A stretch of DNA of 64,000 bases, taken from NCBI GenBank assembly GCA_044892505.1, contig CM097884.1, forward strand, positions 14,012,001 through 14,076,000. The letters run 5' to 3'. Source of the DNA: Schmidtea nova. Taxonomy: Eukaryota. A program made the translations under genes and the position numbers. How positions within the stretch are numbered: position 1 is the first letter of the stretch; each line of letters starts with the position of its first letter. The notes beneath the pieces were generated by a model, which searched no databases, was not told where the DNA came from, and saw only the letters and a program-made list of their open reading frames with translations. Below are positions 2,817 through 36,975 of this stretch, in pieces.

Positions 2817-2849
2817 ACTATAGATCAAAATTTTTTTTTATAAACAATA

Positions 2850-2882
2850 CCACAATATTTCGGCACAGCCTTTATCAAGTGT
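2850..2882 (-). ncRNA. Minimal type-I hammerhead-like motif in pLTR (weakened stem I)
   Basis: ACAC-UUGAUAAA-GGC/UGU/GCC-GAAAUAUU-GUGG. Confidence 0.5.
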
Positions 2883-2953
2883 GTATTTCTATCGTTATAT
2901 TTACTTAATCCTAAATAGTAGCCTTAATTATTTTTTAATATTTTATAATGATT

Positions 2954-5557
2954 TTATTGGATGAAAAAATTTATTTTAATTTTTTTGTGCGAATTGAATG
3001 TTGATGGACGGTTTGTATATTTTATGAAAAAAGTCTCGGAAGCTAATCTTTGTAATGAATTTTTGAATCCCTCTTGTAGAATCTGGCATTTTGTTTCTTC
3101 ATAGATGGAGTTGTTTTATGTACTTTTTCCCAGTGTTCGTAATAATTATTGGTTTTGTTTTTAGTGTGTTCATTCAGTCGGGTGCGAAAAGTTCTATGTG
3201 TTTCTCCTATGTAAGTAGCGTCACATTTTTGGCAAGAAAGTTTATATACTATATTATTGGAAAAGCAAAAGCATCGGGTTGTGGAACGGCAAAGACATTT
3301 ATGTTTTGAGATGTTAGAAATTGGTGGCTTTCGGAGTTGTGATTTTAACGGTGCGGAGGTTATGAAAGTAGAACGGATGTGGATAGGCAAATCTGTTTGA
3401 TTAAAAATGTTGGTGATTTTGTTGGCTGTAGTGTCATTTAGGAAATGTAATCTTAGATATGTTGTGTGTTTGTTATTGTTATTGTGTTTCTGGCGTTTCC
3501 TATTGTTGCGTTTATTGTGGTATGGTTCGTTAAGGAAGTATTTCTTTACAAATTCTTCAGGGTATCCATTTTGGAGGAATCGTATTTTGAAGTTTTCTAA
3601 TGTTTCTTGTATTTTGTTTGAGTCTGAACAGTTTCTTATGGCTCTTTTTCTTTCTCCTATTAGTAATGCGATTTTGCGTTGAAGTGGAACGTAGCTTTTC
3701 CATGGGAGGATATGACCACTATGTAAACTTTTAGAATATAGCTCGGTGTTTGCATTTAGTGTATCTTGGCCTTTTGTGAAACTTACTATGGTATCTAAAA
3801 CGGTATTTTACCTTCTGTGTTCGGTGTTTCAAAAGTGAATTGTATGTTGGTGTTAGTAGAATTTGCGTGTGATAGGATTTGATTGAGAGGGATTGTGGAG
3901 ACTATGAAGATGTCGTCGATGTATCGTTTCCAGAAAAGTATTTTGTCCCCAAAAAAAGATATGATCTTAGATTCTATAAAGTTCGTGTAGAAGATGGCTA
4001 AGATGGGAGAAAGGTTATTACCCATGGCTAATCCATGAATTTGTTTGAATGGTTTTTCTTTAATTATGACAGTATCTGAATTTATTGCTAATTTTAGAAG
4101 TTCTATAAAGTCTTGTTTAGTTAAGTCTGCGAGGTCAGTGTTGGCTTTATGAGTTTCAAAGAAAGAAGCTGCGATATCGAAAATATTATTCTCTCCGTGA
4201 AGAGGAATAGATCCGTAAAGATTGGAAACATCAAGAGATCCCCAGAAGTACTGTTGTCCTGAGGTTAACGGAAGAGACGTATTTGTAATTTCGGAGACGA
4301 ATTCAGTTGTGTTTTTAAGATGACAAGGAACTAAAGGCAAAAGTGTTTTTAGGATTTCTGAAAGAACTTTAGAAAGTGTTGTGGAAGGAGTGTCAACTGC
4401 AGATACAAGAAGTCTGCCTTTTAAAGGATTTTTGTGATCTTTAGGTAACATAGTCATATTACTAGGTAAGGGCTCACTACAGTTGCATTTTAAAAGTAAA
4501 TCTTTGATTTGAAGGTTGATTTGTTTATTTGCAAGTGTTGACAGTTTCTTATTGTATAAAATCTGAGTCGATGCAGGCAAGATTATTTTGTTTATCGGTT
4601 CATAGTTCGAGAGATGTTCTTCAAATAGAGTATTGTATTGTTCTGTGTCAAGGGCAATTAGTCGATTGGTTTTATCTGATGGAAGAATTGTGAAGTCTTT
4701 GGAATTCTTAATTTTCTTTATGTCTGAAGTGAAAGAATTTTGTGTTGAGCAATGTTTTTCAAGAAAGATAATTATTTCTTTGACTAAAGTTTTGACTTTA
4801 GTTTCTAAAAAGCTGATTTTTTCTTCAAGTTCAGTCGAAAAGACAGGCATATTTGGATATGTTCTACGATTTGGATCCAGAAGATGATTGTGCTTTTCCG
4901 CTAAACTTGAAGATTTGGTGGATGAAATTGGTTTTAGATGGTAACCTATTTGTCTTCTTAGGCTTATAAGAGAGGCGTTAGTGATGATTTCGGCTTTTTC
5001 TAAATCTTTCTGGTTAGGTGGAGGAACAAAAGATGGTCCTAGAGCGAGGACCATTTCTTGTGTTTTGGAAAAAATGTGATTAGATTTGTTTGTAAATAGA
5101 AGAATTGAATTTGTGTGTGAGTTAGTGTCTTTAGTGTTGTTTGAATTTGTTGAAAGTAGCTTTTCTAATTTTTTATGCTTGCGAATGTCGAGATTTTTGG
5201 AGAAATTCTGGCAACAAGTATTATCTTCACAAGTAAGAGGAGCACAAGGAAAACTAGTAAATTCATTTATCTTTTTGTAACAAGCTGAAGCCATTCTTTT
5301 TCCTGTTTTTCCTTAAGCTTCAATGCTTGTAAAGATGGATAGGTTGATTCCAGTTTGTTGGTAACAGTCAGGCCCACGGTAATGATGTTTCTTCTTTTGC
5401 ATTCTTTTAAAAAATGTAAGTGTGATTTGATTTTGATGATTTTGAGACTATAAAATAACGATAGATCTACTCGGTGATGGGCGTCCGCCAATATACTATC
5501 ATAATTATCTTTTTTCACCTTTGATCTTTTTTTATTATTATTATCAATAAATCTCAT
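2954..5557 (-). pseudogene. PLE RT-GIY-YIG ORF split by about three 1-bp frameshifts (~5275, ~3797, ~3110)
   Basis: ORF pieces 5267-5557, 3795-5294 (SLDVSNLY, GLAMGNNLSP, WKRYIDD) and 3043-3390 (IVYKLSC..CDATYIGET). The indels at ~3797 and ~3110 are visible against the intact + copy. They lie in or near homopolymers and may be sequencing errors. Confidence 0.85.
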
Positions 5558-5594
5558 AATGACTATAGATCAAAATTTTTTTTTATAAACAATA

Positions 5595-5627
5595 ACACAA
5601 TATTTCGGCACAGCCTTTATCAAGTGT
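5595..5627 (-). ncRNA. Minimal type-I hammerhead-like motif in pLTR
   Basis: Stem I ACAC/GUGU, core UUGAUAA (U3-A8 variant of CUGANGA), stem II GGC/GCC, GAAA, palindromic stem III AUAU, cleavage triplet AUU. Confidence 0.6.
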
Positions 5628-5789
5628 GTATTTCTATCGTTATATTTACTTAATCCTAAATAGTAGCCTTAATTATTTTTTTAATATTTTATAATGATTT
5701 TATTGGATGAAAAAATTTATTTTAATTTTTTTGTGCGAATTGAATGTTGATGGACGGTTTCTATTTTTTTTGAAGAAAGTCTCGGAAAT

Positions 5790-7589
5790 TGCTCAACACA
5801 AAATTCTTTCACTTCGAACATAAAGAAAATTAAGAATTCCAAAGACTTCACAATTCTTCCATCAGATAAAACAAATCGACTAATTGCTCTTTACACAGAA
5901 CAATACAATACTCTATTTGAAGAACATCTCTCGAACTATGAACCGATAAACAAAATAATCTTGCCTGCATCGACTCAGATTTTATACAATAAGAAACTGT
6001 CAACACTTGCAAATAAACAAATCAACCTTCAAATCAAAGATTTACTTTTAAAATGCAACTGTAGTGAGCCCTTACCTAGTAATATGACTATGTTACCTAA
6101 AGATCACAAAAATCCTTTAAAAGGCAGACTTCTTGTATCTGCAGTTGACACTCCTTCCACAACACTTTCTAAAGTTCTTTCAGAAATCCTAAAAACACTT
6201 TTGCCTTTAGTTCCTTGTCATCTTAAAAACACAACTGAATTCGTCTCCGAAATTACAAATACGTCTCTTCCGTTAACCTCAGGACAACAGTACTTCTGGG
6301 GATCTCTTGATGTTTCCAATCTTTACGGATCTATTCCTCTTCACGGAGAGAATAATATTTTCGATATCGCAGCTTCTTTCTTTGAAACTCATAAAGCCAA
6401 CACTGACCTCGCAGACTTAACTAAACAAGACTTTATAGAACTTCTAAAATTAGCAATAAATTCAGATACTGTCATAATTAAAGAAAAACCATTCAAACAA
6501 ATTCATGGATTAGCCATGGGTAATAACCTTTCTCCCATCTTAGCCATCTTCTACACGAACTTTATAGAATCTAAGATCATATCTTTTTTTGGGGACAAAA
6601 TACTTTTCTGGAAACGATACATCGACGACATCTTCATAGTCTCCACAATCCCTCTCAATCAAATCCTATCACACGCAAATTCTACTAACACCAACATACA
6701 ATTCACTTTTGAAACACCGAACACAGAAGGTAAAATACCGTTTTTAGATACCATAGTAAGTTTCACAAACGGCCAAGATACACTAAATGGAAACACCGAG
6801 CTATATTCTAAAAGTTTACATAGTGGTCATATCCTCCCATGGAAAAGCCACGTTCCACTTCAACGCAAAATCGCATTACTATTAGGAGAAAGAAAAAGAG
6901 CCATAAGAAACTGTTCAGACTCAAACAAAATACAAGAAACATTAGAAAACTTCAAAAAACGATTCCTCCAAAATGGATACCCTGAAGAATTTGTAAAGAA
7001 ACACTTCCTTAACGAACCATACCACAATAAACGCAACAATAGGAAACGCCAGAAACACAATAACAATAACAAACACACAACATATATAAGATTACCTTTC
7101 CTAAATGACACTACAGCCAACAAAATCACCAACATTTTTAATCAAACAGATTTGCCTATCCACATCCGTTCTACTTTCATAACCTCCGCACCGTTAAAAT
7201 CACAACTCCGAAAGCCACCAATTTCTAACATCTCAAAACATAAATGTCTTAGTCGTTCCACAACCCGATGCTTTTGCTTTTCCAAAAATATAGTATATAA
7301 ACTTTCTTGCCAAAAATGTGACGCTATTTACATAGGAGAAACACATAGAACTTTTCGCACCCGACTTAATGAACACACTAAAATCAAAACCAGTAATTAT
7401 TACGAACACTGGGAAAAAGTACATAAAACAACTCCATCTATAGAAGAAACAAAATGCCAGATTCTACAAGAGGGATTCAAAAATTCATTACAAAGATTAG
7501 CTTCCGAGACTTTTTTCATAAAAAATACAAACGGTCCATCAACATTCAATTCGCACAAAAAAATTAAAATAATTTTTTTCATCCAATAA
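5790..7589 (+). CDS. Open PLE RT + GIY-YIG endonuclease frame (5'-truncated, no native start)
   Basis: ORF track 5961-7589; the frame stays open back to 5790. RT motifs LDVSNLY, QIHGLAMG, RYIDD. GIY-YIG motif NIVYKLSCQKCDAIYIGETHRTFRTRLNEH. Confidence 0.85.
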   Translation, partial: CSTQNSFTSNIKKIKNSKDFTILPSDKTNRLIALYTEQYNTLFEEHLSNYEPINKIILPASTQILYNKKLSTLANKQINLQIKDLLLKCNCSEPLPSNMTMLPKDHKNPLKGRLLVSAVDTPSTTLSKVLSEILKTLLPLVPCHLKNTTEFVSEITNTSLPLTSGQQYFWGSLDVSNLYGSIPLHGENNIFDIAASFFETHKANTDLADLTKQDFIELLKLAINSDTVIIKEKPFKQIHGLAMGNNLSPILAIFYTNFIESKIISFFGDKILFWKRYIDDIFIVSTIPLNQILSHANSTNTNIQFTFETPNTEGKIPFLDTIVSFTNGQDTLNGNTELYSKSLHSGHILPWKSHVPLQRKIALLLGERKRAIRNCSDSNKIQETLENFKKRFLQNGYPEEFVKKHFLNEPYHNKRNNRKRQKHNNNNKHTTYIRLPFLNDTTANKITNIFNQTDLPIHIRSTFITSAPLKSQLRKPPISNISKHKCLSRSTTRCFCFSKNIVYKLSCQKCDAIYIGETHRTFRTRLNEHTKIKTSNYYEHWEKVHKTTPSIEETKCQILQEGFKNSLQRLASETFFIKNTNGPSTFNSHKKIKIIFFIQ

Positions 7590-7661
7590 AATCATTATAA
7601 AATATTAAAAAAATAATTAAGGCTACTATTTAGGATTAAGTAAATATAACGATAGAAATAC

Positions 7662-7694
7662 ACACTTGATAAAGGCTGTGCCGAAATATTGGAG
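7662..7694 (+). ncRNA. Hammerhead-like motif with disrupted stem I
   Basis: Same core, but the 3' strand of stem I reads GGAG instead of GUGU. Confidence 0.45.
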
Positions 7695-8024
7695 TTATTG
7701 TTTATAAAAAAACATTTTGATCTATAGTCATTATGAGAATTATTGATAATAATAATAAAAAAAGATCAAAGGTGAAAAAAGATAATTATGATATTATTAT
7801 TATGGTTATTGTTTATTTTTATTTTAATTATTATTATTTATTATTATTATTTATTATTTTATTATTAATATTATTATTTATTATAATTATTATTTATTAT
7901 TATTATGATATTATTATTATTGTTATTATCATAATTATCTTTTTTCACCTTTGATCTTTTTTTATTATTATTATCAATAATTCTCATAATGACTATAGAT
8001 CAAAATTTTTTTTTATAAACAATA

Positions 8025-8057
8025 ACACAATATTTCGGCACAGCCTTTATCAAGTGT
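8025..8057 (-). ncRNA. Minimal type-I hammerhead-like motif
   Basis: Same motif as 5595-5627. Confidence 0.6.
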
Positions 8058-8119
8058 GTATTTCTATCGTTATATTTACTTAATCCTTAAGGATTAAGTA
8101 AATATAACGATAGAAATAC

Positions 8120-8152
8120 ACACTTGATAAAGGCTGTGCCGAAATATTGTGT
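8120..8152 (+). ncRNA. Minimal type-I hammerhead-like motif
   Basis: Same motif, other arm of the palindrome. Confidence 0.6.
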
Positions 8153-8210
8153 TATTGTTTATAAAAAAAAATTTTGATCTATAGTCATTATGAGAATTAT
8201 TGATAATAAT

Positions 8211-12233: not shown

Positions 12234-13019
12234 TCATATTAAAAGGTTCTTCTCAAAGTCTATTCAAAGAGGAAATCTTAGAGACATGTAAATAGGCAAA
12301 CGTAATTTTATTGTTGAATAAAAATTATAATAACTTACCTTTTCAATAATTTATAAATATCTAAAAAATATATATTTATAAAATAATTAGATACTTAACT
12401 TAAAATATTAAATAAAATATGTAATCAAATTAAACTATGGTAAAACAGCTTTAAATTATGATTAAAAACATAATTAACAATAATTACTCACCATTTGCCT
12501 GTAATGAGTGTCTGTGACCCTTAACTACAGACTGTTGGTGTATTATGGAAAAAAGGTAACCATAGTATAACGTATTCAATCAGGTTGCCGGATAATGTCG
12601 AATAAACGAGAACCCTAAAAATTTATGAAATTTTAAAATTCTGTATAGAAATTTTAATTATACTGTTGGATCCACCATTTGGTCCACATTTAGCATAAAA
12701 AATAATAATAATAAGAGAGAAAATAAGAATAAATTAAAATAAATATAATTATGAAAATATCAGTAAAAACGAATTAAAATGTAATAAAGAATATTAATTT
12801 AATATAAAAAAATTGGAAGAAAATAAATGTATAATGTAAAAACGTTAAAGAAAATGATATTTAATTATATTTAAATAATAAGAAAGCGAAATAAATAAGT
12901 AAAAAAGAAGAAGAATTAATAAAAATTCGATAAATTAAAACCAGAAAATGCAAATCATATTTGCTAATAAAATTGATTTTATTTTTAATAGAATTGCATT
13001 GATGACCATCAGATTGATG

Positions 13020-13056
13020 CTGATTGGTCAATGAACTGATCTGGTCAGTATAAATA
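13020..13056 (+). promoter_or_regulatory. LTR promoter: inverted CCAAT (CTGATTGGTCAAT) plus TATAAATA
   Basis: The same pair of motifs, in the same order, occurs in the divergent family-2 LTR (39310-39273, minus). Copy in the 3' LTR at 29768-29804. Confidence 0.65.
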
Positions 13057-14289
13057 CTGATCCAGATTCAGATATTTTTAATGTTTTTGTGATTGAAAAA
13101 TTTTTTCTTTGTATTGCTATATACAAACTTTGGAAACTAATAGGTATGAGTATTTTTGTTTTATTGAATTTATAAATTTTATGATTATCTGTCATTGACC
13201 ATTGTAGTTAATTATTAATAAAATATTTTATGATATATGATTTTTAAATTTTTGTCGAGTATAGAATTAAACCCAGCTTCTTCCACTGTGAAATCAGTGG
13301 AAGGAGATGACTATATTTATATATTATATATCTTTTATTAAGCTTCTTCCATCGTGTAATCGGTGGAAGGAGGTAACAGTATCAGTTTATACTAACAACT
13401 AACAAGTATATTTTTTAGAAGTAATTTTTGGGTCGAGCTTCTTCCACTGTGTAATCAGTGGAAGGAGGCGTATATATATTATCTATATACCGTATTTATA
13501 GTATAAAATTACGTATGATTTAAGGGGCTCCGTTCACCGTGCAATCGGGAACATGGAGGCATACTGTGCCGAGTAGAAACGACTGCTCCGTACAGTTAGG
13601 CCGTCCGACCGGTGTAAAGCGCCGTGACGAGGGTAGGAATGTTATTTTTGATTTCTAACCTTATTTTTCACTGGATAGTATAACCAGTTGAAGTTTTATT
13701 TTCTAACCGATTTAGTTTTTCATGAGTGTATAGTTAAATTGAGTTTTGATTTTAGTTGGATACAGATGTAACTGCGATTTGAGTAATCTGATTTTACCTT
13801 GAGATTCACAGAGTGTTAGCGTACATTTTTCGATGGTCACATCTGGGGTTTGTGGGCATAGAGCGGCAGATACACGGTTAAGAATCTGTACAAAATATAA
13901 TTTTAATAACAACATAAAAATCGATAATGCTAACAACGTAGTGATCTACTACGCAAGTAACATAGCAGCAATAGGCTATAGGTTCAAACATTCCACCTAA
14001 ATAATTAAACATAATTGCTTATCCTGAACCCTGTACATAGGGCAGTGGATCTTAGTTTATTTTAATAACTTTCTTATCCTGAATGCTGTATATAGCACAG
14101 GCGTAACTAAATAAAATGCATTATGAAATAAATGTATCTGATCGCTGTATATAGCGACAGTGTTGAAAGCGTAATAGGTACATCATTTTCTTTTCCTAAA
14201 TTAACAATTACCAATTGTCAAAAGTATGAGAATCGTTCGAATCAAGACTACTAATTTCATGTTAATAAACCAATTTCGAATTTTAGAAA

Positions 14290-14880
14290 ATGTCAGCCAA
14301 CACAGCAACTAACCAAGCCGAATTAGACAAAGCATGGAGAATAATCCGCAGCCTCGAAAAGGAAATGCTGCGAAAATCAGAGAAAATAAAAGAAGCCGAT
14401 GGAATAATTACCAACCTAAAGAAAAGCTGGTTCAGTCCAGAACAAATGAAAATGCAAATCACCAAAACTCAACGCTCACAGCGAGCTAACAGCGAACTGC
14501 AAATGGAATTGGACGCAACGAAGATGGAATTAAAGAAATGCCTAAAATCTGTAACGGCATCATATCTAACTCAAGAGCTCAGCCAGCTCATTCGACCAAT
14601 CACTTATCAGCATTGGGCTGACGAAAAGGCAGGATGCTCAAAAGGAACAAGCACAGAGGAACCATCTCAGGTTCAAGCAACGGCGGCCTCCATCACACCA
14701 AAGGACGTAATAATTCCAGAAGTCAAGAAGAAAAAGAAGAGTAAGATGGGCGCACGTCAGCGACGCTGGAAGAAACAAGTTCTTCAGCAATTGGCTCAAC
14801 AATCCAAAGAAATTCCAGAAATTGATTTGAACATGAATTTTGCAATATCAGATGAAGATATTACCAAATACTTTGAATAG
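14290..14880 (+). CDS. LTR-encoded 196-aa coiled-coil protein with basic K/R motif (ORF-B)
   Basis: Intact ORF with TTTTAG|AAAATG immediately upstream; homologous to 36976-37575 and 43738-44199. Confidence 0.8.
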   Translation: MSANTATNQAELDKAWRIIRSLEKEMLRKSEKIKEADGIITNLKKSWFSPEQMKMQITKTQRSQRANSELQMELDATKMELKKCLKSVTASYLTQELSQLIRPITYQHWADEKAGCSKGTSTEEPSQVQATAASITPKDVIIPEVKKKKKSKMGARQRRWKKQVLQQLAQQSKEIPEIDLNMNFAISDEDITKYFE

Positions 14881-15194
14881 GAATTTTGTGATTTGTAAAT
14901 TTTGCTTATTAAATAATTTTTGTTTTGTATTTATCTTATTGTAAAGTATATGAACTAAAGTATTTTATTAAAGGATTTTTAAATTAAATTAAATGTAGAT
15001 TATAAATAAAAGATTGACATAAAGTAATGAACAATAATAGCATTAAAGAAATAACATATCGTAAAAATATTATTTGTTGATATTGTAAAGAAGGGGGCTG
15101 AAAGAAAGTTGAAAGTGGAAATATATTGTAACGAAAGGGGGCGAAAAGAGATAATTGAAATGAAAGATAATGGATGCGGATAGATTAAAATTAA

Positions 15195-15390
15195 AGCGTA
15201 AGTCCTTCTATCGGCAGCGAGACGAACCCGTGAACATAAATGGGGAGTAGTTTTAGCAATAGAGCTCACCTGCCCATCATTGTTCAAACACCTTGCACAT
15301 TTCCAACTCGATTATTACAGGGAAATGATCGAGGGTGCTCGTGTGATATGTAAGCATTTTATGTGAGGTTTTGGATGGAGGAATCCCTAG
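15195..15390 (+). ncRNA. Conserved structured RNA element near the LTR 3' end (copy in 3' LTR at 31943-32138)
   Basis: Alignable to 36668-36858 (-) and 44396-44572 (+) with compensatory base-pair changes (see findings). Confidence 0.6.
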
Positions 15391-15458
15391 AGCGTTTAAG
15401 AATAATTATTAATTTTGTATTTTTGTTTTAACCCAATCCGAAACCAACAACATAAATT

Positions 15459-15476
15459 TGGGGGCTCAGCCGGGAA
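15459..15476 (+). promoter_or_regulatory. Primer binding site, tRNA-Pro type
   Basis: TGGGGGCTCAGCCGGGAA, close to the canonical tRNA-Pro PBS TGGGGGCTCGTCCGGGAT; located 9 nt after the LTR end. Confidence 0.8.
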
Positions 15477-15615
15477 TCAAATTGGTTTTTGTGCGAAAAA
15501 TTGAATCCAACAATAACAGGGAGTTTTAAAGTGCCCCTCAGCCGGGATGAAAATGGTTTTTGTGCGAAAAATTGAATCCAATAATAACCAGGAGTTTTAA
15601 AGTGCCCCTCAGCCG
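15465..15615 (+). repeat. ~72-bp tandem duplication containing the PBS core CTCAGCCG(GGA)
   Basis: Units start at 15465, 15537 and 15608 (last one partial). Confidence 0.85.
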
Positions 15616-17725: not shown

Positions 17726-18584
17726 TAACTAAGCAGGTGATTATTCTCTAAGAAGGTATTTTCCCTAGAGAAGGGCCATGGAGTCAAGCGAATAAATTAA
17801 ATTAGGGCATAGAAGAGCCAAGTGAATAAGTGAATAAATTAGAGAAGAGCCAAGTGAATAAATTAAATTATGGCGTAGAGAGCCAAGGGAATAAATAAGC
17901 AACAGAGATGAAATAAAACCAAGTTGTAATCGTCGACGATGTTAAGAGTAATGAGCACTAGAAATTAAGTAATACGAGTAAAGATGATTAAGTAAACTAG
18001 AGATTCAGTATGCATACGAGTAGAAATAGGAATAAGAGAAATTAGAGTTGACCGGAAAAACCGGTAGAAATAGTGAGAATAATGAATAATGATGAGAAAT
18101 TAGAGATGACTGGAAAATTTGATAGGAATAGTGAGAATAGTGAGTAATGATGATATAATGAATAGTGATAAAATGATAATTGAGTCAGGAGAACTCAAGG
18201 GAATTAAAGCGTTTGAGCGACAAATTAAATTGGGAGACTGAGGGAAAAGTAACGAATTTATTTGATAACGATAGATAATTATTACGACCATATAGATAAT
18301 TGTTACCAGTGAATAGATAATTTAAATAGACTTAAATAAAGGGGAAACCGGGAATGGGGAAACAATGGAAACCCAATAATGAGGAATAAAAGCGCAACGA
18401 TAACAATGATGTATCGTTGAAGTGACTTTTTAATTTAGATATACGGAACAGAACAAGTCAAACAACCAGCCAATCAATCAGAATACGATAACAGAGAAAC
18501 AGAAAAATTGATAAATCAAAGAAAAGTAAACCGAGATCAAGAACAGTTAAAAATCAAGAAGTCAATAATTCACAAAGAAATAAA

Positions 18585-21500
18585 TTGAGATCAAGAGCAG
18601 TTAGTGCTACAATCGAAAAAGTTGATAATTCACAGAGAAATAAATCGAAACAAAGAGCAACCAGTGCTACAAAGAAAACAAATCCTAAAGGAAGTAAATC
18701 AAGAAGAGTAATAGTAGAAAAGTCAAAAGTCGAAAACAGTAAATTTGCTAAAACTAACGAAAGTGAAACAGAAGAAAGTTTAAGTGAAACCTACGATAAG
18801 TATAATAATACGGAAGCATCAGATAACGAGTCAATAAACACAGAAGAAGTAGAAGCAGAAATTGATAATAATTCAAACGAAACGAATAACGAGCATACTA
18901 GTGAAACAAGAGGAAACGAGAGTAAAACGACTCAAGACAGCGGAATTGAAATGAACGAGCATAAAGAAGAAATCAAAGATAAATTTACTGGAGAACCATT
19001 CAATGGAGATGCCAGCAAGTTAGAAACGTTCTTAAAAGAATTTGGTATATTTGTAGAAGTGTGTAAATGGAAACCAGAAACGATAAGAAGCAGAATTCAG
19101 TTATATTTAAAAGACAGTGCGTTAGACTTATATTTAGAAGCTAAAAATTCGGATGATCAACTCGATAGTTGGGAAAAGATAAAGAATTTTTTCCAGCAAA
19201 CGTTTGGAATAAATAAAGTATTAAATGAAGCGTTTACAGAATTTTCAATGAGGAAACAAAAAGTTAATGAATCAAATGCAGTATATGCAAGTGAATTAAA
19301 GAAATTGGCTAAATTGGCATTTAATCAAAATAGTCCAATGAGTCCAGAATTAATGGCAGCAATTTTTGTGGGGGGATTGAGAAGACCCGATATAAGAGCA
19401 CAAGTTGGATGCCAAGGTTGTAAAACAATAGATGAAGCGTTGGAAATCGCTAACAGATTTGAATTACATATGATCGGAAGTGAAGGAAGAATTTACCTAG
19501 CAATGGATACGACACAAAATGAACAAGCAATGAAGATAAACAATCATATTCCGAATTCACAACAATTAAACCGACCACCACCTCAAAGGAGAAATGAGGG
19601 AAACAAAGTACAAAATTTCGGAAACCAAAATAATTATAATACGCAAGGACAGACAAAGCAATGTCAAACCTGTGGAAAGTTAGGACATTGGCAACAAGAA
19701 TGTTTCGCGAATTTAAATTGTAAAAAGTGTGGAAGAAAAGGACATTCGGAAAGTAGATGTTACCTGAATTCATGTTATAACTGTGGACAACCAGGTCATA
19801 TGGCAAAGAATTGCCAACAACAAAACAACCAACAAAGGAATTGGTCGAACAACGGAAATCGACAAAGTTATGCGAATCAACAGAATAACGGAAACCGTCA
19901 GAATTATGAAAATCAACAGAGTAATTATAACCAGAACAAAAGTACCACCAAAGAGATACATTTATTACAAGAAGTTCAGAGATTGACAGAGTTAATAAAC
20001 AATACACCGAGAGGAAATCAACAAACGAATCAACAACAAATGAATATGATGAGAAAAGTAGAAAGTGAAAATGAACGACTAAACCGAGAAAGTCAAGCAC
20101 GACATGCTCAAGAATGGGCAAGAATACAAAGAGAAGACGAACAGAAACGACAAGAAAGAGAACGACAACCATTGAGAATTAATATGATGAGAGCAGCGAA
20201 TCAAACAAGAGATAACAAAGAAGATATTGAACCAGAAACAAACCAGATAAACCCAAATCCGGAAGATGAAGAAAACCAAAAAGAAAAAGTACAAGAAAAC
20301 GAAGAAGATATTGAACAAAAAAGGATGTTGGTAGTCATGCCAAACGATCATGTATTTCGATTTGAATATGATGAAAAAGAGGAAGTAGAAGTATTAATTA
20401 ATAAAGTAAACAAGACGATTCCGGGAACGACGAAACTACCCCGAGAAGCATTCTTACAGACAGAAGACGAAGCAGCAATAAAATTAAAACCAACTGACAT
20501 ATGGAAAGATTTAGGAGTACCAATGAATAAAATGAAAGTCACAGTTATCCAAGAAATAGAAGAAAATAACGATGAAGAGAAATCAAAACCAGTAACAAAA
20601 GTCAAAAGTAGAGCATTGAAGATATTTGAAGAGAAAATCAAACAGAGAAAAGCAATGGAGATAGAAAAACGAAGAGGCCAAATAGAAGAATCAGGAAACA
20701 ATGACAAAAAGGAAGAAATACCACCAAACAGTATACCAGAAAACTATGAACTTAGACGATGTAGAAGTATGGATCCGCAAGGAGATTCACTCACAATTGC
20801 AGTCATGTCATCAAATACAGGACCAGTATTAACTACAACCATAGAAATAAATGGAAAAGAAATAGAAGCGATGATAGATACAGGAGCAAACATTTCGGCG
20901 ATAGATGTTAAATGGATACCGCAAGAACAGAGACAAGAAATTGAAAGAACAAATGTTCATGTAATAGCATGTAGTAAAGAGATTGTTGAAGTTGCAGGAA
21001 GATGGTGGGTAAAAATACGACACCAAAATATAGAAATCGAAACGTATGTAGCAGTAATACCAGCTTTAAGCGTACCATGTATAATCGGAACAGATTTAAT
21101 GCCAACACTATTCAAAGAAATAATCATCGATCTTGGAACAATGAGATTAAAGGACAGAACAGGGAAAATATGTGCCATGAAAACAAAAGTAATAAACTCG
21201 AAACAAATAATGATACCGGAAGAGAGAATCATGACGAGATCACAAACCATCAGAATAAATATGCTCAGAGCGGAAGAAATTAACACAACTAGTCAAGTAG
21301 ACAGTGAGAAAATCGATGTTGACAAAGAAATCGTACGGAAAGCCAAAGAAATAAACGAAAGATGGGAAATCAGACAAGAAAAAGACGTATTATGGGATAT
21401 ACGACAAATAATTAGTGATTACGCACGAGGATGCCCAACCAAACCAATCATAATAGAATTATTAAAGAAAATACCAGAGATACTCGTATTACAAGATACA

Positions 21501-24500
21501 GGAGGTGCAACTGCACTGCACAATGCCATAAGTTGGGGTAAAACAGAAAAGGTAAAAGAATTCTTGAAAATAGCAAAAGAAACGAATCAAAATCTAGACA
21601 TTGTAAATCGAGAATTAGAAACGCCAATGATGACAGCAACACTAAGCTTAGCAGATAAAGAAATAGTAGATATGCTGATTAACGCAGAATTCAACTGGAC
21701 AGCTCGGGATAGAAGAGGAAACACAGTTTTAAATCATGCAATAATGAGTGAAAATCAAATGATACTAAAACATATAACAACCAACCTCACATGGGAAATC
21801 GATGAATTAATCAAAGGAGAAATTATGAAGGAAGCGATTCGGAAAGGAAACACTAAAACAATATGGAAACTAATACAATGGAAATGGCCGGATAATAAAA
21901 CATGGGTATTAGATATAAACAAAGAATTTAGCGAAGGACAGAATGCACTATTGAGATACTTATTAGAGTTTACGTGCGATCAGAGAACGATGTTAGCACT
22001 AATAAATAGAGGAAAAATAAATATTAGTAAAAACGAAGAGGAATATAAACTAGAAGTTGAAAAGAAAGCTTTATTCAGGAAAATTTGGGTATGGTGTCAA
22101 AAACAAATACGCAAAGACATAAGCTACAAAAATCTAAATGATTTCCAAGAAAAGTATAAGATAATAATAAAGGAATACAAGAAGCTAGTGGAGATATTAA
22201 ACGATCCAGAAAAATTTAATCAAGCAATAAATCAGAAAGAAGAAGAAAGTAAAAGGATACTCACACCATTGTTCAACGCGAAGATAGATTATCAAGAAAG
22301 ATTGGATGCAATACACAAAAAAGCAAAGGAACTATTACCAGAATTCAAAGATACTAAATACGCCTTGGAAATACTAGGCGCGATAGTAGAAAAAGTACAC
22401 GCGTACGCGAAAGGAATGTATAATGGAGATGATATAATAACTATAAAAAGAGAAATGCCAGTTGCGTTTTTATTAACAAAAGAAAGAATAATACCGATTC
22501 ATAGAGCATTGAGAGCAGGAAAAGACGGTAAAGTAATCGAAATCGCAAGATTAATGCATCAATGTGGATGTGATATGAATATGATAGATGAAAAAGGAGA
22601 CACCCTTATGGTATACGCAGCAAGAGCAAAAACAAAAATCAAAGTATTAGAAGAGTTATATAAAGCAGGCGCAGGATTAATCGGAAAAACTGTCAAAGAC
22701 AACTCAATATTAGACGTGACATTATTAGGTCCAAATTGGGAAATGTTGAATTTCATTAAAACGATAACAAACCAAGAAGAGATAGATTATTTAACAGAAA
22801 CCGTAAAAAGACCAAGTGTATTGACAATGATGCAAAACATCAAATTGACAGAAGAAGTATTAAACTGGAAAATACCAAATACAAATAAACCAGCATTTAA
22901 AGTTAACAAGTTTATGGAGAATAATCGAAATTGGTGTATCCAAAGCGCACTAATAACTTATATATGGCCTGAAATTGTAGAAATTTTCATGAGAAGAGAA
23001 GACCTGAGATTTACAAACAAGCCTAAAGAAACGGAAAAGGTAGTCAAATGGAAAGAACTGATGAGAACACACCTTCAAAGTTGGATAAAAGCCAAGAAAG
23101 AAATTATACAGTATCAGTTAGACAACAAAAAGATACCCGAAGATATAGAATTCCAAGAATTTGAAGCAAGTAACTTAACCTCATTATATTATGCAAAACT
23201 AATAGAAACAAGTAATGTCGAGGACGACATTTTTAACGAGCCAGGGAGAGATAATAATACTGACAAAGACGATGACGATGAAGAAAACAATGACGACGAG
23301 AGAAATAAAGACGATGATGATGAAAATAATCACGGAAACCCAGATAACCACGAGCAAACCAACAAAGAAGACGAGAATCAAGAGAGAAATACAAAGAACC
23401 AAGAATCCAAAGAACAAAGAGAAGACAACCCTAAAAACAATCATGAAAACAAAGGAACAAGTTACAGAAGGAATCCATTATTCAGACCAGAAGTATTAAT
23501 GTTCGCAATAATCATAACACTTATGGGACAATGTGAAGCAACGAAACAAGAGATATCAGTAGAAATGGGAGTACCAATACAAAAAGCATCAACACAGATA
23601 ATGAATTCAAAGGATATTGAACAAGTATGTTGGGTAAAAGAGAATGAAATTCTCGGAGATAACAACCTATTACGATGTATAATACCAAACCCCGAGCGAA
23701 AAACTATAATAATAGACGAAATGGACATGGAAACATGGTACAGAATATGTACAATCAGAAAACCTAAAGACGAAAAATCACACAAGACAGTTACATGCCA
23801 AGTATACAAGACACCCAAAGTTCGATACGAGTTCGCCAATGGAATAGACCTTCCAGGACCATTTTATTTTAAAATAACAAGAGAACCAGCATCAAGAAAA
23901 GTCTTACAACAACCAAGAACCAAGATAACAACACCAAGTATAAGGAATACAACGGATAAACCAGAAACAAACAGAAGAAATACAACGGATAAACCAGAAC
24001 CAAAAAGACGAACGAAACAAACCACAAGAGTAATCTATAATTCCAAGTTGTTATGTATAGCACTTATTATGACAATACTGAAGCGATTAGAAGAAGGAAT
24101 AGAAATGGATACGATGACACTAATAGACATGGAAGAGACACAAATAACAAATCAAAAATGTTGGTTTAGAAATGATGAAAAATTAGAATTAAAGGAATCA
24201 AGAGAAATTCGAAAATTAGAAGCGGGTAAAACGAACAAAGTAATCAAGATAATAAAGATAAAAACAGACAGAATTCATAAACTATGTTTATTGGAAAAAG
24301 AGAGAAACAAGAAAGGAATAACCAATTGTAAAACATTCCAAGCAGGGAAAATAATAACGTTCGCAAGAAAAATGGGGAAAAGAAACAAACAAAATTTCCA
24401 GAAATTAACCATAACGTTAGAAATAACGGGAATAGAACAAAACGTAAACGGAGTATGCTGGAGAAAATACGAGAAAGAAGCAAATAAACACAAATCATCA

Positions 24501-25463
24501 CAATGTCAAACAATCAGAGGAACAACTGCAGTACAAATAAAAAGCTTAGAAAGAAATCAAACGTATGAAATATGCCTAGTAAAAGAAAATGATCAAATAA
24601 CGAAAGAAGATTTAGAATGCAGAATATACAGAGCACCGAACAGAATAAAAACCATTAAAGCAATACGAAAGAATAAAAGACAACAAAAACCGAAGCATAC
24701 CACTACCGAAAGTCAAACAGAACCAGAGAGGAAAACCTCAGCAACACTTATACTTTGGAAACTAGATAACAAAACAGTAGAAATATGTTGGACAATGATC
24801 AAGAAATATGAAGAAAGACAACCACAACAATGCGAAAAGATGAACAAAGAAGAGGAGATCAGAATTCAGAACCTACAATTGGACAAACAATACGAAATAT
24901 GCGCAATAGAAAAGGCAGATAAATTTGGAAACCAGCAAGAAAAATGTGGAAACTACTATACACCGACAAATACAACGATCAAAGGAAGAATCAAGAAACT
25001 AACTTTCGGAGAATTGAATCAAACAACGAAACAAATGGAAAACGAGGAAACAATAATAGATTCTTATGCACAATGGAAACCAGAAAAAGTAATCCAGGAA
25101 GTCAAAAGGAAACAACAAGAACGACAACAATTGGAACTCAAATTGAAAGGACAATATGGACCAATGATCAATCAAAGCAAATTCACCCAAATCAATGTTA
25201 ACAAGCAAGGAAGAGAATTAATCGGAGTAGGAATACTGGCAGTATGCGTACCAGTAATAATAATACTATCAATAATATGGCTATGGGACATAATAAAAAA
25301 GAAACCAACCAGACAATGGCCAGATATAAAGATTATGAATTGTAAAATCAAGATACCAGAAGAAGTAAAGAAAGAATTCCAAAGAAGAACCAAAGGCAAA
25401 GAATTTTGGAAGCAGATCGAAGACGAGGAGCGACACGATGAAAAGGCAGTGATGATAGTATAG
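18585..25463 (+). CDS. Gag(3xCCHC)-Ubl-like-aspartic protease-ankyrin-FN3-like-TM polyprotein (start uncertain; first in-frame ATG at 18951)
   Basis: Capsid-like FNGDASKLETFLKEF; CCHC x3 (19662-19814); MIDTGA...IIGTD protease (~20822-21150); ankyrin-like repeats (~21490-21780 and ~22490-22765); signal-like segment (~23490-23540); Cys-containing FN3-like repeats; TM segment (~25218-25286). Confidence 0.88.
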   Translation: MRSRAVSATIEKVDNSQRNKSKQRATSATKKTNPKGSKSRRVIVEKSKVENSKFAKTNESETEESLSETYDKYNNTEASDNESINTEEVEAEIDNNSNETNNEHTSETRGNESKTTQDSGIEMNEHKEEIKDKFTGEPFNGDASKLETFLKEFGIFVEVCKWKPETIRSRIQLYLKDSALDLYLEAKNSDDQLDSWEKIKNFFQQTFGINKVLNEAFTEFSMRKQKVNESNAVYASELKKLAKLAFNQNSPMSPELMAAIFVGGLRRPDIRAQVGCQGCKTIDEALEIANRFELHMIGSEGRIYLAMDTTQNEQAMKINNHIPNSQQLNRPPPQRRNEGNKVQNFGNQNNYNTQGQTKQCQTCGKLGHWQQECFANLNCKKCGRKGHSESRCYLNSCYNCGQPGHMAKNCQQQNNQQRNWSNNGNRQSYANQQNNGNRQNYENQQSNYNQNKSTTKEIHLLQEVQRLTELINNTPRGNQQTNQQQMNMMRKVESENERLNRESQARHAQEWARIQREDEQKRQERERQPLRINMMRAANQTRDNKEDIEPETNQINPNPEDEENQKEKVQENEEDIEQKRMLVVMPNDHVFRFEYDEKEEVEVLINKVNKTIPGTTKLPREAFLQTEDEAAIKLKPTDIWKDLGVPMNKMKVTVIQEIEENNDEEKSKPVTKVKSRALKIFEEKIKQRKAMEIEKRRGQIEESGNNDKKEEIPPNSIPENYELRRCRSMDPQGDSLTIAVMSSNTGPVLTTTIEINGKEIEAMIDTGANISAIDVKWIPQEQRQEIERTNVHVIACSKEIVEVAGRWWVKIRHQNIEIETYVAVIPALSVPCIIGTDLMPTLFKEIIIDLGTMRLKDRTGKICAMKTKVINSKQIMIPEERIMTRSQTIRINMLRAEEINTTSQVDSEKIDVDKEIVRKAKEINERWEIRQEKDVLWDIRQIISDYARGCPTKPIIIELLKKIPEILVLQDTGGATALHNAISWGKTEKVKEFLKIAKETNQNLDIVNRELETPMMTATLSLADKEIVDMLINAEFNWTARDRRGNTVLNHAIMSENQMILKHITTNLTWEIDELIKGEIMKEAIRKGNTKTIWKLIQWKWPDNKTWVLDINKEFSEGQNALLRYLLEFTCDQRTMLALINRGKINISKNEEEYKLEVEKKALFRKIWVWCQKQIRKDISYKNLNDFQEKYKIIIKEYKKLVEILNDPEKFNQAINQKEEESKRILTPLFNAKIDYQERLDAIHKKAKELLPEFKDTKYALEILGAIVEKVHAYAKGMYNGDDIITIKREMPVAFLLTKERIIPIHRALRAGKDGKVIEIARLMHQCGCDMNMIDEKGDTLMVYAARAKTKIKVLEELYKAGAGLIGKTVKDNSILDVTLLGPNWEMLNFIKTITNQEEIDYLTETVKRPSVLTMMQNIKLTEEVLNWKIPNTNKPAFKVNKFMENNRNWCIQSALITYIWPEIVEIFMRREDLRFTNKPKETEKVVKWKELMRTHLQSWIKAKKEIIQYQLDNKKIPEDIEFQEFEASNLTSLYYAKLIETSNVEDDIFNEPGRDNNTDKDDDDEENNDDERNKDDDDENNHGNPDNHEQTNKEDENQERNTKNQESKEQREDNPKNNHENKGTSYRRNPLFRPEVLMFAIIITLMGQCEATKQEISVEMGVPIQKASTQIMNSKDIEQVCWVKENEILGDNNLLRCIIPNPERKTIIIDEMDMETWYRICTIRKPKDEKSHKTVTCQVYKTPKVRYEFANGIDLPGPFYFKITREPASRKVLQQPRTKITTPSIRNTTDKPETNRRNTTDKPEPKRRTKQTTRVIYNSKLLCIALIMTILKRLEEGIEMDTMTLIDMEETQITNQKCWFRNDEKLELKESREIRKLEAGKTNKVIKIIKIKTDRIHKLCLLEKERNKKGITNCKTFQAGKIITFARKMGKRNKQNFQKLTITLEITGIEQNVNGVCWRKYEKEANKHKSSQCQTIRGTTAVQIKSLERNQTYEICLVKENDQITKEDLECRIYRAPNRIKTIKAIRKNKRQQKPKHTTTESQTEPERKTSATLILWKLDNKTVEICWTMIKKYEERQPQQCEKMNKEEEIRIQNLQLDKQYEICAIEKADKFGNQQEKCGNYYTPTNTTIKGRIKKLTFGELNQTTKQMENEETIIDSYAQWKPEKVIQEVKRKQQERQQLELKLKGQYGPMINQSKFTQINVNKQGRELIGVGILAVCVPVIIILSIIWLWDIIKKKPTRQWPDIKIMNCKIKIPEEVKKEFQRRTKGKEFWKQIEDEERHDEKAVMIV

Positions 25464-29411: not shown

Positions 29412-32197
29412 TGTTGGATCCACCATTTGGTCCACATTTAGCATAAAAAATAATAATAATAAGAGAGAAAATAAGAATAAATTAAAATAAATATAATTAT
29501 GAAAATATCAGTAAAAACGAATTAAAATGTAATAAAGAATATTAATTTAATATAAAAAAATTGGAAGAAAATAAATGTATAATGTAAAAACGTTAAAGAA
29601 AATGATATTTAATTATATTTAAATAATAAGAAAGCGAAATAAATAAGTAAAAAAGAAGAAGAATTAATAAAAATTCGATAAATTAAAACCAGAAAATGCA
29701 AATCATATTTGCTAATAAAATTGATTTTATTTTTAATAGAATTGCATTGATGACCATCAGATTGATGCTGATTGGTCAATGAACTGATCTGGTCAGTATA
29801 AATACTGATCCAGATTCAGATATTTTTAATGTTTTTGTGATTGAAAAATTTTTTCTTTGTATTGCTATATACAAACTTTGGAAACTAATAGGTATGAGTA
29901 TTTTTGTTTTATTGAATTTATAAATTTTATGATTATCTGTCATTGACCATTGTAGTTAATTATTAATAAAATATTTTATGATATATGATTTTTAAATTTT
30001 TGTCGAGTATAGAATTAAACCCAGCTTCTTCCACTGTGAAATCAGTGGAAGGAGATGACTATATTTATATATTATATATCTTTTATTAAGCTTCTTCCAT
30101 CGTGTAATCGGTGGAAGGAGGTAACAGTATCAGTTTATACTAACAACTAACAAGTATATTTTTTAGAAGTAATTTTTGGGTCGAGCTTCTTCCACTGTGT
30201 AATCAGTGGAAGGAGGCGTATATATATTATCTATATACCGTATTTATAGTATAAAATTACGTATGATTTAAGGGGCTCCGTTCACCGTGCAATCGGGAAC
30301 ATGGAGGCATACTGTGCCGAGTAGAAACGACTGCTCCGTACAGTTAGGCCGTCCGACCGGTGTAAAGCGCCGTGACGAGGGTAGGAATGTTATTTTTGAT
30401 TTCTAACCTTATTTTTCACTGGATAGTATAACCAGTTGAAGTTTTATTTTCTAACCGATTTAGTTTTTCATGAGTGTATAGTTAAATTGAGTTTTGATTT
30501 TAGTTGGATACAGATGTAACTGCGATTTGAGTAATCTGATTTTACCTTGAGATTCACAGAGTGTTAGCGTACATTTTTCGATGGTCACATCTGGGGTTTG
30601 TGGGCATAGAGCGGCAGATACACGGTTAAGAATCTGTACAAAATATAATTTTAATAACAACATAAAAATCGATAATGCTAACAACGTAGTGATCTACTAC
30701 GCAAGTAACATAGCAGCAATAGGCTATAGGTTCAAACATTCCACCTAAATAATTAAACATAATTGCTTATCCTGAACCCTGTACATAGGGCAGTGGATCT
30801 TAGTTTATTTTAATAACTTTCTTATCCTGAATGCTGTATATAGCACAGGCGTAACTAAATAAAATGCATTATGAAATAAATGTATCTGATCGCTGTATAT
30901 AGCGACAGTGTTGAAAGCGTAATAGGTACATCATTTTCTTTTCCTAAATTAACAATTACCAATTGTCAAAAGTATGAGAATCGTTCGAATCAAGACTACT
31001 AATTTCATGTTAATAAACCAATTTCGAATTTTAGAAAATGTCAGCCAACACAGCAACTAACCAAGCCGAATTAGACAAAGCATGGAGAATAATCCGCAGC
31101 CTCGAAAAGGAAATGCTGCGAAAATCAGAGAAAATAAAAGAAGCCGATGGAATAATTACCAACCTAAAGAAAAGCTGGTTCAGTCCAGAACAAATGAAAA
31201 TGCAAATCACCAAAACTCAACGCTCACAGCGAGCTAACAGCGAACTGCAAATGGAATTGGACGCAACGAAGATGGAATTAAAGAAATGCCTAAAATCTGT
31301 AACGGCATCATATCTAACTCAAGAGCTCAGCCAGCTCATTCGACCAATCACTTATCAGCATTGGGCTGACGAAAAGGCAGGATGCTCAAAAGGAACAAGC
31401 ACAGAGGAACCATCTCAGGTTCAAGCAACGGCGGCCTCCATCACACCAAAGGACGTAATAATTCCAGAAGTCAAGAAGAAAAAGAAGAGTAAGATGGGCG
31501 CACGTCAGCGACGCTGGAAGAAACAAGTTCTTCAGCAATTGGCTCAACAATCCAAAGAAATTCCAGAAATTGATTTGAACATGAATTTTGCAATATCAGA
31601 TGAAGATATTACCAAATACTTTGAATAGGAATTTTGTGATTTGTAAATTTTGCTTATTAAATAATTTTTGTTTTGTATTTATCTTATTGTAAAGTATATG
31701 AACTAAAGTATTTTATTAAAGGATTTTTAAATTAAATTAAATGTAGATTATAAATAAAAGATTGACATAAAGTAATGAACAATAATAGCATTAAAGAAAT
31801 AACATATCGTAAAAATATTATTTGTTGATATTGTAAAGAAGGGGGCTGAAAGAAAGTTGAAAGTGGAAATATATTGTAACGAAAGGGGGCGAAAAGAGAT
31901 AATTGAAATGAAAGATAATGGATGCGGATAGATTAAAATTAAAGCGTAAGTCCTTCTATCGGCAGCGAGACGAACCCGTGAACATAAATGGGGAGTAGTT
32001 TTAGCAATAGAGCTCACCTGCCCATCATTGTTCAAACACCTTGCACATTTCCAACTCGATTATTACAGGGAAATGATCGAGGGTGCTCGTGTGATATGTA
32101 AGCATTTTATGTGAGGTTTTGGATGGAGGAATCCCTAGAGCGTTTAAGAATAATTATTAATTTTGTATTTTTGTTTTAACCCAATCCGAAACCAACA
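29412..32197 (+). repeat. 3' LTR (family 1)
   Basis: No differences from the 5' LTR seen by eye; all ORF-track translations in the two LTRs are identical. Confidence 0.95.
31038..31628 (+). CDS. ORF-B copy in the 3' LTR
   Basis: Identical translation to 14290-14880. Confidence 0.8.
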   Translation: MSANTATNQAELDKAWRIIRSLEKEMLRKSEKIKEADGIITNLKKSWFSPEQMKMQITKTQRSQRANSELQMELDATKMELKKCLKSVTASYLTQELSQLIRPITYQHWADEKAGCSKGTSTEEPSQVQATAASITPKDVIIPEVKKKKKSKMGARQRRWKKQVLQQLAQQSKEIPEIDLNMNFAISDEDITKYFE

Positions 32198-33088
32198 ATA
32201 CCTTATTTTAATATTAAAAGGGGTCGCCGATGTTTTTCTTAATTTTCCTAAATTAATGTAAATTACTAATGCATTTTATAAATCTTCTATAGCTCAAAGT
32301 GAATAATTTGAAATTCTAAATTAATAAAACCTCTAAATTATAATTATTGCCTGTTACTAAGGCCTCGGGTGAAATTTGAAAGTTTTAGAGTAATTTCTAT
32401 TTAATTTAAGTATGATTTTGGGATTAATGCAAATTGATTATCTTAGTTAACGTGAACCAATAGATTTTCCCTTAATTTAATATACATTAAAGCTAACTCT
32501 TGTAAATAACGTGAATAAGCGCTATCCAGTGATTTTATAAATCGAATATAGCCAAGTAGCGGCTGGCCTGGCGTCAATAGACATTCCGAGTTGGGTCGTA
32601 ACAAAATGCTTGGAGATGATTTTATGAGCGAAATGAATATATTAAAGATGTTTGCGTTGGTGTAACATAGCGCAAAACGGTTAAGCGGAATAATTGATGT
32701 TATATTCTCCAGAATTTAATATTTAAATGATTAAAATTGAGAGGGCATTTATTTTAGCACATCGCTGATCAGTTTAATAGACACCAAATCTGAACTGAAG
32801 ATTTGTGAAATAAAAACGAGGTAGCACCTTGCTCGAACCTCTCGAAAAACCTCGATACTTTTCGAATAATGATTGAAATGATCCTGTTTTGCCTGTGGCA
32901 TGGATATATTTATTTGGACATAATTCTTGAATAATATGCAAAATTGCTGACGTTTTGTTGTTCATAATGATTGATTTCGATATAATAATAAATTGGTATT
33001 GATGTGATTATTTATTTTGATTTGCCTATTAAAATCCCTACTGAATAGTTATAGATTATGTAACTAATATGGACAAAATTGGCGAAGA

Positions 33089-33412
33089 ACCTTTCATCGG
33101 TCGCCATTGAACCCACTGCGATATTCAGTCAATCAATATTTCCAATTTTCGACGCTCACTGTTTGCGGATGTCCACCCATTTGTTGCATTACTAATGTTA
33201 CTTTTGGTGAGTTGTTGATCGTCAATATGACCTTGACGTTGCAATGGCTCACATTGAAATCTAAACACATAAGTCATTAGTTTAAAAAAGCTTGTTGCCC
33301 ATCACAATGTAACGTTGGAATTGCAAAGAATGGGTGGATTTTAGCAAACAGTGAATCGAAACTATGATTGACCGAAAGTCTCAGTGGTTTCAAGGGCTAC
33401 CGATAGAAGGTT
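33089..33412. mobile_element. Fold-back MITE with imperfect TIRs (piggyBac-like ends); related fragment at ~45785-45900
   Basis: AACCTTTCATCGGTCGCCATTGAACCCACTG versus the reverse complement of CAGTGGTTTCAAGGGCTACCGATAGAAGGTT; inverted similarity extends ~120 bp inward. Confidence 0.6.
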
Positions 33413-36858: not shown

Positions 36859-36975
36859 ATTTACTTTATTATGTGAACATATGATTTAAATTTAATTACT
36901 ATTAATTACGTAACCGAAGAAAAATACCTAGAAGAACAAAAAAAACAACACAAAAATCTGATAATATTTAATGCT

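Follow-up and report, generated by a model that had tools for sequence, protein, structure and literature searches.

Structures in which the RNA of a retroelement engages its primer tRNA have been described in a few retroviruses and in yeast Ty elements, where comparative support is hard to obtain. According to the accessible parts of the sources, additional contacts between template and tRNA are known in HIV-1, Ty1 and Ty3 (PMC3185550, PMC11251516, PMC3592414, PMC5371799). The primer activation signal (PAS) of HIV-1 is described there as pairing with the part of the T arm to which the linker reported below is complementary, and a PAS has been predicted in HTLV-1, which is primed by tRNA-Pro (PMC3185550, PMC11251516); the PAS model is disputed in HIV-1 (PMC3185550). 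For the planarian Burro/GYPSM1 giant Gypsy elements, the accessible text describes the protein content (PMC6431247), and BURRO1 was reported to be transcribed on loss of a PIWI protein in another planarian (PMC8532177). A literature search covering openly accessible papers found no description of the fold reported here.

The window analysed, a stretch of 64,000 nt from Schmidtea nova, contains a Burro-like giant Gypsy element (family 1) on the forward strand. Its 5' LTR (12664-15449, 2,786 nt, TG...CA) and 3' LTR (29412-32197) showed no differences, and the target-site duplication (TSD) ATAC at 12660-12663 and 32198-32201 brackets 19.5 kb. The long TG...CA LTRs, the short TSD and an interior of more than 15 kb were all as in Burro-like elements. 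The polyprotein ORF (18492-25463, +) contains a zinc knuckle, an aspartyl protease and an ankyrin domain, and no match to reverse transcriptase (RT), RNase H or integrase was found in it. Pfam matches in the family 1 interior comprised zinc knuckle, aspartyl protease, ankyrin, MATH/TRAF and RING, and the window copy itself gave no match to RT, RNase H, integrase or the fusion protein. Motif-bearing relatives added Pfam domains for a fusion glycoprotein, RT, RNase H, integrase and BIR, so that Gag, an env-like fusion protein, protease, RT, RNase H, integrase, ankyrin, MATH/TRAF and BIR were found across these relatives. Family 1 thus has identical LTRs, yet neither the window copy nor a longer sister (L110-L112) matched RT, RNase H or integrase, and family 1 elements are probably mobilised in trans. 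Elsewhere in the window, a Penelope-like inverted pair of RT and GIY-YIG reading frames was seen at 2817-8200 and exons of the host coatomer beta gene at 46908-57021. Three short spaced hairpins occur inside each family 1 LTR (13275-13477 and 30023-30225).

The motif is a predicted four-hairpin RNA directly upstream of a primer binding site (PBS) for tRNA-Pro, and in Burro-like giant Gypsy elements it makes up the final ~260 nt of the LTRs. An earlier note had placed a structured RNA of about 190 nt at the 3' end of three LTR families in the window. The motif was indeed recovered in all three, at 15190-15395 (+) with its twin in the 3' LTR at 31938-32143, at 36662-36863 (-) and at 44389-44578 (+). 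The position at the LTR end also stood, but the size had been underestimated because a 5' hairpin and the long 3' hairpin had been missed. Family 2 is represented by a solo LTR (36625-39655, -, TSD CTCA) with the motif at 36863-36625, and family 3 by an LTR end with the motif (44389-44632, +), after which there is no PBS. Using models built in this analysis, we found three decayed fragments in the window. One belongs to a fourth divergent group (33076-33244, +, E 2.6e-5), a second fragment of this group is inverted relative to it (33246-33424, -, E 2e-11), and the third is related to the same group (45770-45964, +, E 9.4e-8).

When the genome was searched with a pattern for the motif, 4,992 matches were obtained compared to 2 for the reversed control, and a second, independent pattern gave 6,775 compared to 60. 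A pattern of the LTR end and PBS alone gave 627 matches and none in the control. The first 30 of these 627, selected solely by LTR end and tRNA-Pro PBS and representing about ten families rather than 30 independent events, all carried the motif. When 20 further PBS loci were fetched, one (L414) was without it, since other sequence directly adjoins the final bases of its LTR. Clustering of 200 matches at 90% gave 53 clusters, and at least six sequence groups were distinguished by inspection (our own labels, without a formal tree). None of the 30 best matches of group 4 (L312-L341) had a PBS after the LTR, suggesting that this group consists mostly of solo or 3' LTRs. Rfam gave no match in the window at gathering thresholds, and no known family matched even at lax thresholds (best E 1.1). 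In a viral collection a loose pattern gave more than 120 matches, and a tighter one gave no viral and 33 metagenome matches. A model scan of 66 viral and all 33 metagenome loci reached a best E of 0.011, and the metagenome matches, read by eye, looked like chance. No credible relative of the motif outside this genome was thus found in the viral and metagenome collections. The fold is real and, in the literature searched, undescribed, and is best filed as a variant of the retroelement U5-PBS leader domain.

The evidence for the fold is comparative and does not come from single-sequence stability. Folding of the whole 200-nt stretch was no better than that of shuffles (z -1.69, -1.34 and -0.49). 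In a first alignment of three groups (52 of 62 representatives after ten truncated rows were dropped, effective number 23), a per-pair tree-based test found no single significant pair (best E 0.84), and its top ranks were rich in stem pairs. A larger alignment, A3, was then considered, with 53 divergent copies: 47 of the 53 cluster representatives, the other six having been dropped as truncated or redundant, and six rows added by hand. Changes on both sides were seen in 35 of 40 proposed pairs. In A3, 84.5% of cells pair compared to 67.3% after shuffling, and the covariation score was 0.532, compared to 0.233 for shuffled and at most 0.140 for slid alignments. In a tree test, the pair was kept in 68 of 81 double changes on the same branch, compared to 5.2 +/- 3.1 (maximum 20) in 500 rewirings. 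G-U cells outnumbered A-C cells (193 vs 86), indicating that the sense RNA is the strand under selection. The proposal of a conserved cis-acting structured RNA was supported. Rows of A3 were chosen by an expression demanding the conserved blocks, so that invariance in A3 is partly by construction, and the conservation counts given here were taken from the 30 PBS-selected loci.

Several helices of the earlier note were confirmed together with their covariation, namely the CUCGAUUAU:AUGAUCGAG hairpin, the GCAC:GUGC stem and the GNRA-capped arm. A fourth, GGCAG:CUGCC, did not hold: 1 of 258 cells was changed on both sides, the score was 0.199 compared to 0.230 for shuffles, and each strand is part of another helix. 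Neither of two supposedly invariant blocks was invariant. GAGUAG was found in 19 of the 30 PBS-selected copies (GAAUAG in 10, UCAUAG in 1) and CUCACCUG in 29 of 30, and one whole group is without GAGUAG, CUCACCUG and the AGGG loop. Likewise, GAGCUCACCUG was not universal among copies. Kept in all 30 were the UUCUA-type loop of the first hairpin, the linker that follows it, UAG and CUCAC around the D1 loop and CCAA in D2. A long-range GCGUAAG:UUUAUGU stem, obtained by single-sequence folding, was rejected; its 5' strand was lost in several groups and its 3' strand pairs with the spacer after the LTR.

The first hairpin, H0 (15196-15218), is small and weakly supported. It has a conserved loop UUCUAUC (15206-15212), kept its pairs in 2 of 4 double changes, and 154 of 200 shuffles were equally stable. 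It is followed by the unpaired linker GAACCCG (15224-15230). D1 (15231-15286) is a long hairpin with a GNRA tip (15256-15259) and a conserved asymmetric internal loop with U opposite CAC (15267-15269). Taken alone it folded better than shuffles (z -4.45), and 29 of 37 double changes kept the pair. In D2 (15289-15345) the figure was 36 of 41; this hairpin has an 8x1 internal loop containing CCAA (15303-15306) and an apical loop AGGGA (15319-15323). The internal loops of D1 and D2 would be the likely sites of protein or tertiary contacts.

The D2 loop is complementary to UCCCU (15384-15388) in the loop of the terminal hairpin D3, which makes the AGGGA/UCCCU pseudoknot of the earlier note a D2-D3 loop-loop contact. 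Twenty family copies were given for the loop-loop counts, of which one was not parsed and two were misparsed. The contact can form, with 5-8 bp, in 11 of the remaining 17, so the pairing is possible but not universal. Each loop pairs better with its own partner than with the mean of the partners of other copies. In two further groups the pairing shifts to UUAGGG/CCCUAA, and it is absent in group 4 and in three copies that are old or have misparsed loops. Such a contact would compact the domain and would be dispensable in one lineage.

Starting at the conserved UUUAUG, D3 (15358-15456) reaches the end of the LTR, and the foot of the hairpin pairs with the LTR-PBS spacer (15450-15458), which is not part of the repeat: UUUAUGU (15358-15364) pairs with ACAUAAA (15450-15456) outside the LTR. 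The stem extends into the spacer in 15 of the 17 correctly parsed family copies. The spacer was 6-9 nt long in all 30 PBS-selected copies. In retroviruses it is 2 nt, and with the long spacer integrase would have to trim a long overhang. In family 1 the D3 partner and the spacer paired at -4.5 kcal/mol in all 14 PBS-bearing copies, compared to a median of about -0.55 kcal/mol with the flanks of 16 other copies, one of which, by chance, paired as well. Comparison of copies showed compensatory changes in this predicted cross-boundary stem. A G for the first A of a seven-base spacer was found at 3 loci genome-wide; two keep the LTR partner, both with a matching C, and the third has lost it. A search with a six-base spacer found 1 locus with a non-A base at this position, compared to the 627 matches of LTR end and PBS. 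In group 4, both strands of the D3 base are two bases longer. The stem is short and AU-rich, and rests on two or three compensatory events.

The motif in the 3' LTR is followed by the host flank, where the D3 base is cut short. In the window, folding gave z -2.52 for the 5' copy and z -1.35 for the 3' copy. As the D3 base needs a spacer that lies outside the repeat, the full-length RNA can form the complete fold at its 5' end only, and a stem across the LTR boundary offers a simple means by which an RNA could distinguish the 5' LTR from 3' and solo LTRs. D3 of the 5' copy would close over the LTR end and the spacer and present the PBS, two bases away, at the foot of a long stem; in the 3' copy this stem could not close.

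The PBS (15459-15476, +) is an 18-nt complement of the 3' end of the genome's own tRNA-Pro, matching at 17 of 18 positions in this copy and at 18 of 18 in its sisters. It was also found in the most divergent group (group 4), and every group seen uses tRNA-Pro. The motif, which is probably located in U5, lies directly upstream of a PBS that matches a host tRNA. Tandem repeats of 71 nt, each with a partial PBS copy, occur 3' of the PBS (15473-15614), and another locus (L070) has several PBS-like copies downstream. Genes for tRNA-Pro are arranged in long tandem arrays in this genome, with 1,032 and 209 pattern matches (G000:C1:459609707 onward and G000:C2:112044601 onward). Recurring units with a changed anticodon, which ARAGORN reads as Ile-TAT, were seen in the UGG tRNA array.

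The best reading of these results, and one that we regard as somewhat probable, is a U5-PBS leader domain that engages the primer tRNA at the start of reverse transcription, a role that the earlier note had not proposed. In tRNA-Pro, the 5' strand and loop of the T arm are complementary to the linker, which is a candidate primer activation signal. Annealing of the PBS to the tRNA 3' end would free the 5' strand of the T arm, which would then be bound by G(A/G)ACCC(G) of the unpaired linker, as in the retroviral PAS. All linker variants in the 30 copies (GAACCCG 14, GGACCCG 13, GAAUCCG 2 and GGACCCA 1) can pair with the T arm, and the tolerated variants are transitions, which are common anyway. 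In 41 of 53 rows the T arm was the site of the best linker duplex. The energy of the linker duplex was -10.3 compared to -8.7 +/- 1.1 for shuffled tRNA, with 23 of 200 shuffles as good, and thus not beyond chance; tRNA-Arg(CCU) of this genome pairs with the linker equally (-10.2). In the internal loop of D2, CCAA is complementary to the UGG anticodon with the U before it, and it may read the anticodon loop like the A-rich loop of HIV-1, or it could pair instead with UUGG at the edge of the PBS. Shuffles did as well against tRNA-Pro in 62 of 200 cases for the CCAA loop and in 71 of 200 for the D1 loop. The tRNA contacts of the linker and CCAA are leads that rest on position and precedent.

Other pairings and signals at these sites were discarded. 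Pairing of the H0 loop with the tRNA was matched by 184 of 200 shuffles, and CCCUAG, considered as a partner of the tRNA D loop, changes to CCCUAA and CCAUAG under the same primer. A Pol III B box on the minus strand was rejected on account of the varying bases beside GAACCC.

A role in priming agrees with the distribution of the motif: family 1, which lacks RT and has identical LTRs, keeps it, as a signal acting in cis should be kept. In known elements priming gets by with a much smaller region, so some of the domain probably serves another purpose.

The LTR itself encodes a candidate partner, which the earlier note had not brought up. Upstream of the motif, an ORF of 196 aa (14290-14880, +) encodes a putative RNA-binding protein with a predicted coiled coil followed by an arginine/lysine-rich helix, and the solo LTR of family 2 has an arginine-rich ORF as well (37575-36976, -). 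The protein is ~195 aa long, and its predicted coiled coil and basic helix were modelled with a mean pLDDT of 72. An intact ORF with a basic stretch, ending 166-343 nt upstream of the motif, was present at 17 of the 30 PBS-selected loci and in groups 1-5. No homologue of the protein was found by sequence, profile, features or fold (four methods), and no homology to Rev, Rex or Rec was detected. A second ORF lies 5' of the arginine-rich one in the LTRs of several groups (37851-38285, -; L044, L052 and L053), and a 60-nt stretch 5' of the arginine-rich ORF is 83% alike between the LTRs of family 1 (14138-14197) and family 2 (38421-38478).

The main rival, which we consider unlikely, is that the motif is a response element for this protein: a short LTR transcript would yield the protein, which would bind the internal loops of D1 or D2 in the long transcript and act in Rev/Rex-like export of unspliced RNA or allow transcription to pass the poly(A) site of the 5' LTR. 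Arginine-rich peptides typically bind asymmetric loops and GNRA tips, and the motif has both; the basic stretch is predicted to be helical and lies behind a coiled coil, and the ORF accompanies the motif in five groups. The Rex response element is likewise described as located in the LTR in the accessible part of the source (PMC12789967). Against this, the pairing of protein and RNA is supported by co-occurrence alone, the protein is without a homologue, and the basic stretch may be merely a nuclear localisation signal. At 13 of the 30 loci, and in those group 6 copies that were examined, no ORF of this kind was recovered; some flanks were too short and some copies decayed. This reading also leaves the spacer pairing and the T-arm match unexplained. 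A Rev/Rex-like pair is plausible and would be compatible with a priming role; the literature search found no Gypsy LTR-encoded arginine-rich protein with an RNA target.

A rather unlikely extension combines the two: a tRNA-capturing domain at the LTR end that would hold the T arm and read the anticodon in a T-box-like manner (CCA+A), switched by the LTR-encoded, Rev/N-like arginine-rich protein. With its complete fold only in the 5' leader, it would tie primer loading to read-through or export of the 25-kb RNA, and it would be new among retroelements.

Restriction of the complete fold to the 5' leader would also suit a packaging and dimerisation signal, in which Gag would recognise the fold, the D2-D3 loop contact would form between two genomes and the closed D3 would mark full-length RNA. 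The loop complementarity (5-8 bp, seen in 11 of the 17 family copies), with the own partner better than the mean of the others, and retention of the motif by RT-less elements are in agreement with this. Retroviral packaging signals, however, lie mostly downstream of the PBS and the motif lies upstream; moreover, no conserved palindrome was found (GAGCUC varies) and the loop contact is missing from an abundant group, making this role decidedly unlikely.

The difference in the D3 base between the two LTRs could also act as a switch, the closed fold suppressing cleavage and polyadenylation in the 5' LTR. Poly(A)-type hexamers (AATAAA/ATTAAA) occurred upstream of the motif in all 30 copies, and none occurred beyond +150 of the motif in any, an arrangement that fits U5 without proving it. 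The hexamers lie at no fixed distance in an AT-rich region, and the spacer is transcribed about 400 nt after them, so that we regard such a switch as very improbable. The 3'-end role suggested in the earlier note is disfavoured by the same lack of hexamers beyond +150 and by a basal stem that needs the spacer, which follows only the 5' LTR.

A self-cleaving or otherwise catalytic RNA is extremely improbable: size, GNRA tip, loop-loop contact and conserved unpaired bases are ribozyme-like, but Rfam gave no match even at lax thresholds, the hairpins are lined up one after another and enclose no multiway core, an abundant group has lost both the pseudoknot and GAGUAG, and cleavage in U5 would sever the strong-stop DNA template. 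A 5' splice site on the antisense strand, also proposed earlier, is disfavoured by the excess of G-U over A-C cells, which points to the sense strand, and a CAGGTR partner was found within 1.4 kb in 1 of 30 leaders; U1-like masking of a leader donor, at 1 of 30, was rejected. Four contig sets gave no canonical splice joint among 15 of their 40 joints, an outcome that counts neither for nor against expression. T-boxes have a specifier codon in a loop flanked by loop E, elbow-binding loops and an antiterminator. A T-box-like tRNA sensor was rejected as well, since Rfam gave no match, AGUA is missing from some copies and lacks a GAA partner (a GAA/AGUA loop E was rejected), and only CCA+A in D2 is specifier-like.

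With thousands of copies in at least six divergent groups, this genome offers deep natural covariation for a 260-nt leader domain in an env-carrying Gypsy lineage. The disputed PAS and anticodon-loop models become testable outside HIV, and the fold could show whether the LTR-encoded arginine-rich protein has an RNA target.

Among arginine-rich protein-RNA pairs, Rev/RRE and phage N/boxB are comparable. A similar response element is that of HTLV-1 Rex, in the source's accessible part a multi-stem LTR RNA beside the gene for a protein with an arginine-rich helix (PMC12789967). Compared with Rex and Rev systems, the present case has no homology, gene and element lie in the same LTR, the fold is complete only at the 5' end and binding is putative. 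The elements themselves resemble Burro/GYPSM1 in Gag, fusion glycoprotein, protease, RT, RNase H, integrase, ankyrin, MATH/TRAF and BIR and in a length of 20-28 kb, and differ in that the description, in its accessible part, covers proteins and no LTR RNA structure (PMC6431247).

In Ty1 (boxes 0, 1 and 2.1 and the 5' pseudoknot) and Ty3 (bipartite PBS), as far as the accessible text goes, the retrotransposon RNA touches the primer outside the PBS as well, at its T and D arms, next to a pseudoknot (PMC3592414, PMC5371799). In these elements the PBS is short and split, whereas it is a full 18 nt here, the Ty1 boxes are found downstream, within GAG, the Ty3 segment is in U3, and the primer differs (PMC3592414, PMC5371799). 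Pairing with the D arm is unsupported in the present motif, in which CCCUAG changes with the D2 loop and not with the tRNA.

Another close counterpart is the retroviral U5-PBS region of HIV-1 and HIV-2, described in the accessible parts of the papers as structured RNA just upstream of an 18-nt PBS (PMC3185550, PMC11251516), with one segment complementary to the 5' strand of the T arm and a loop complementary to the anticodon loop. The motif differs in belonging to a Gypsy element, has no sequence match to these regions and is known from sequence alone. Its about 260 nt form four predicted hairpins with a loop-loop contact, the linker lies about 230 nt upstream of the PBS, and a spacer of 6-10 nt is held within the terminal stem.
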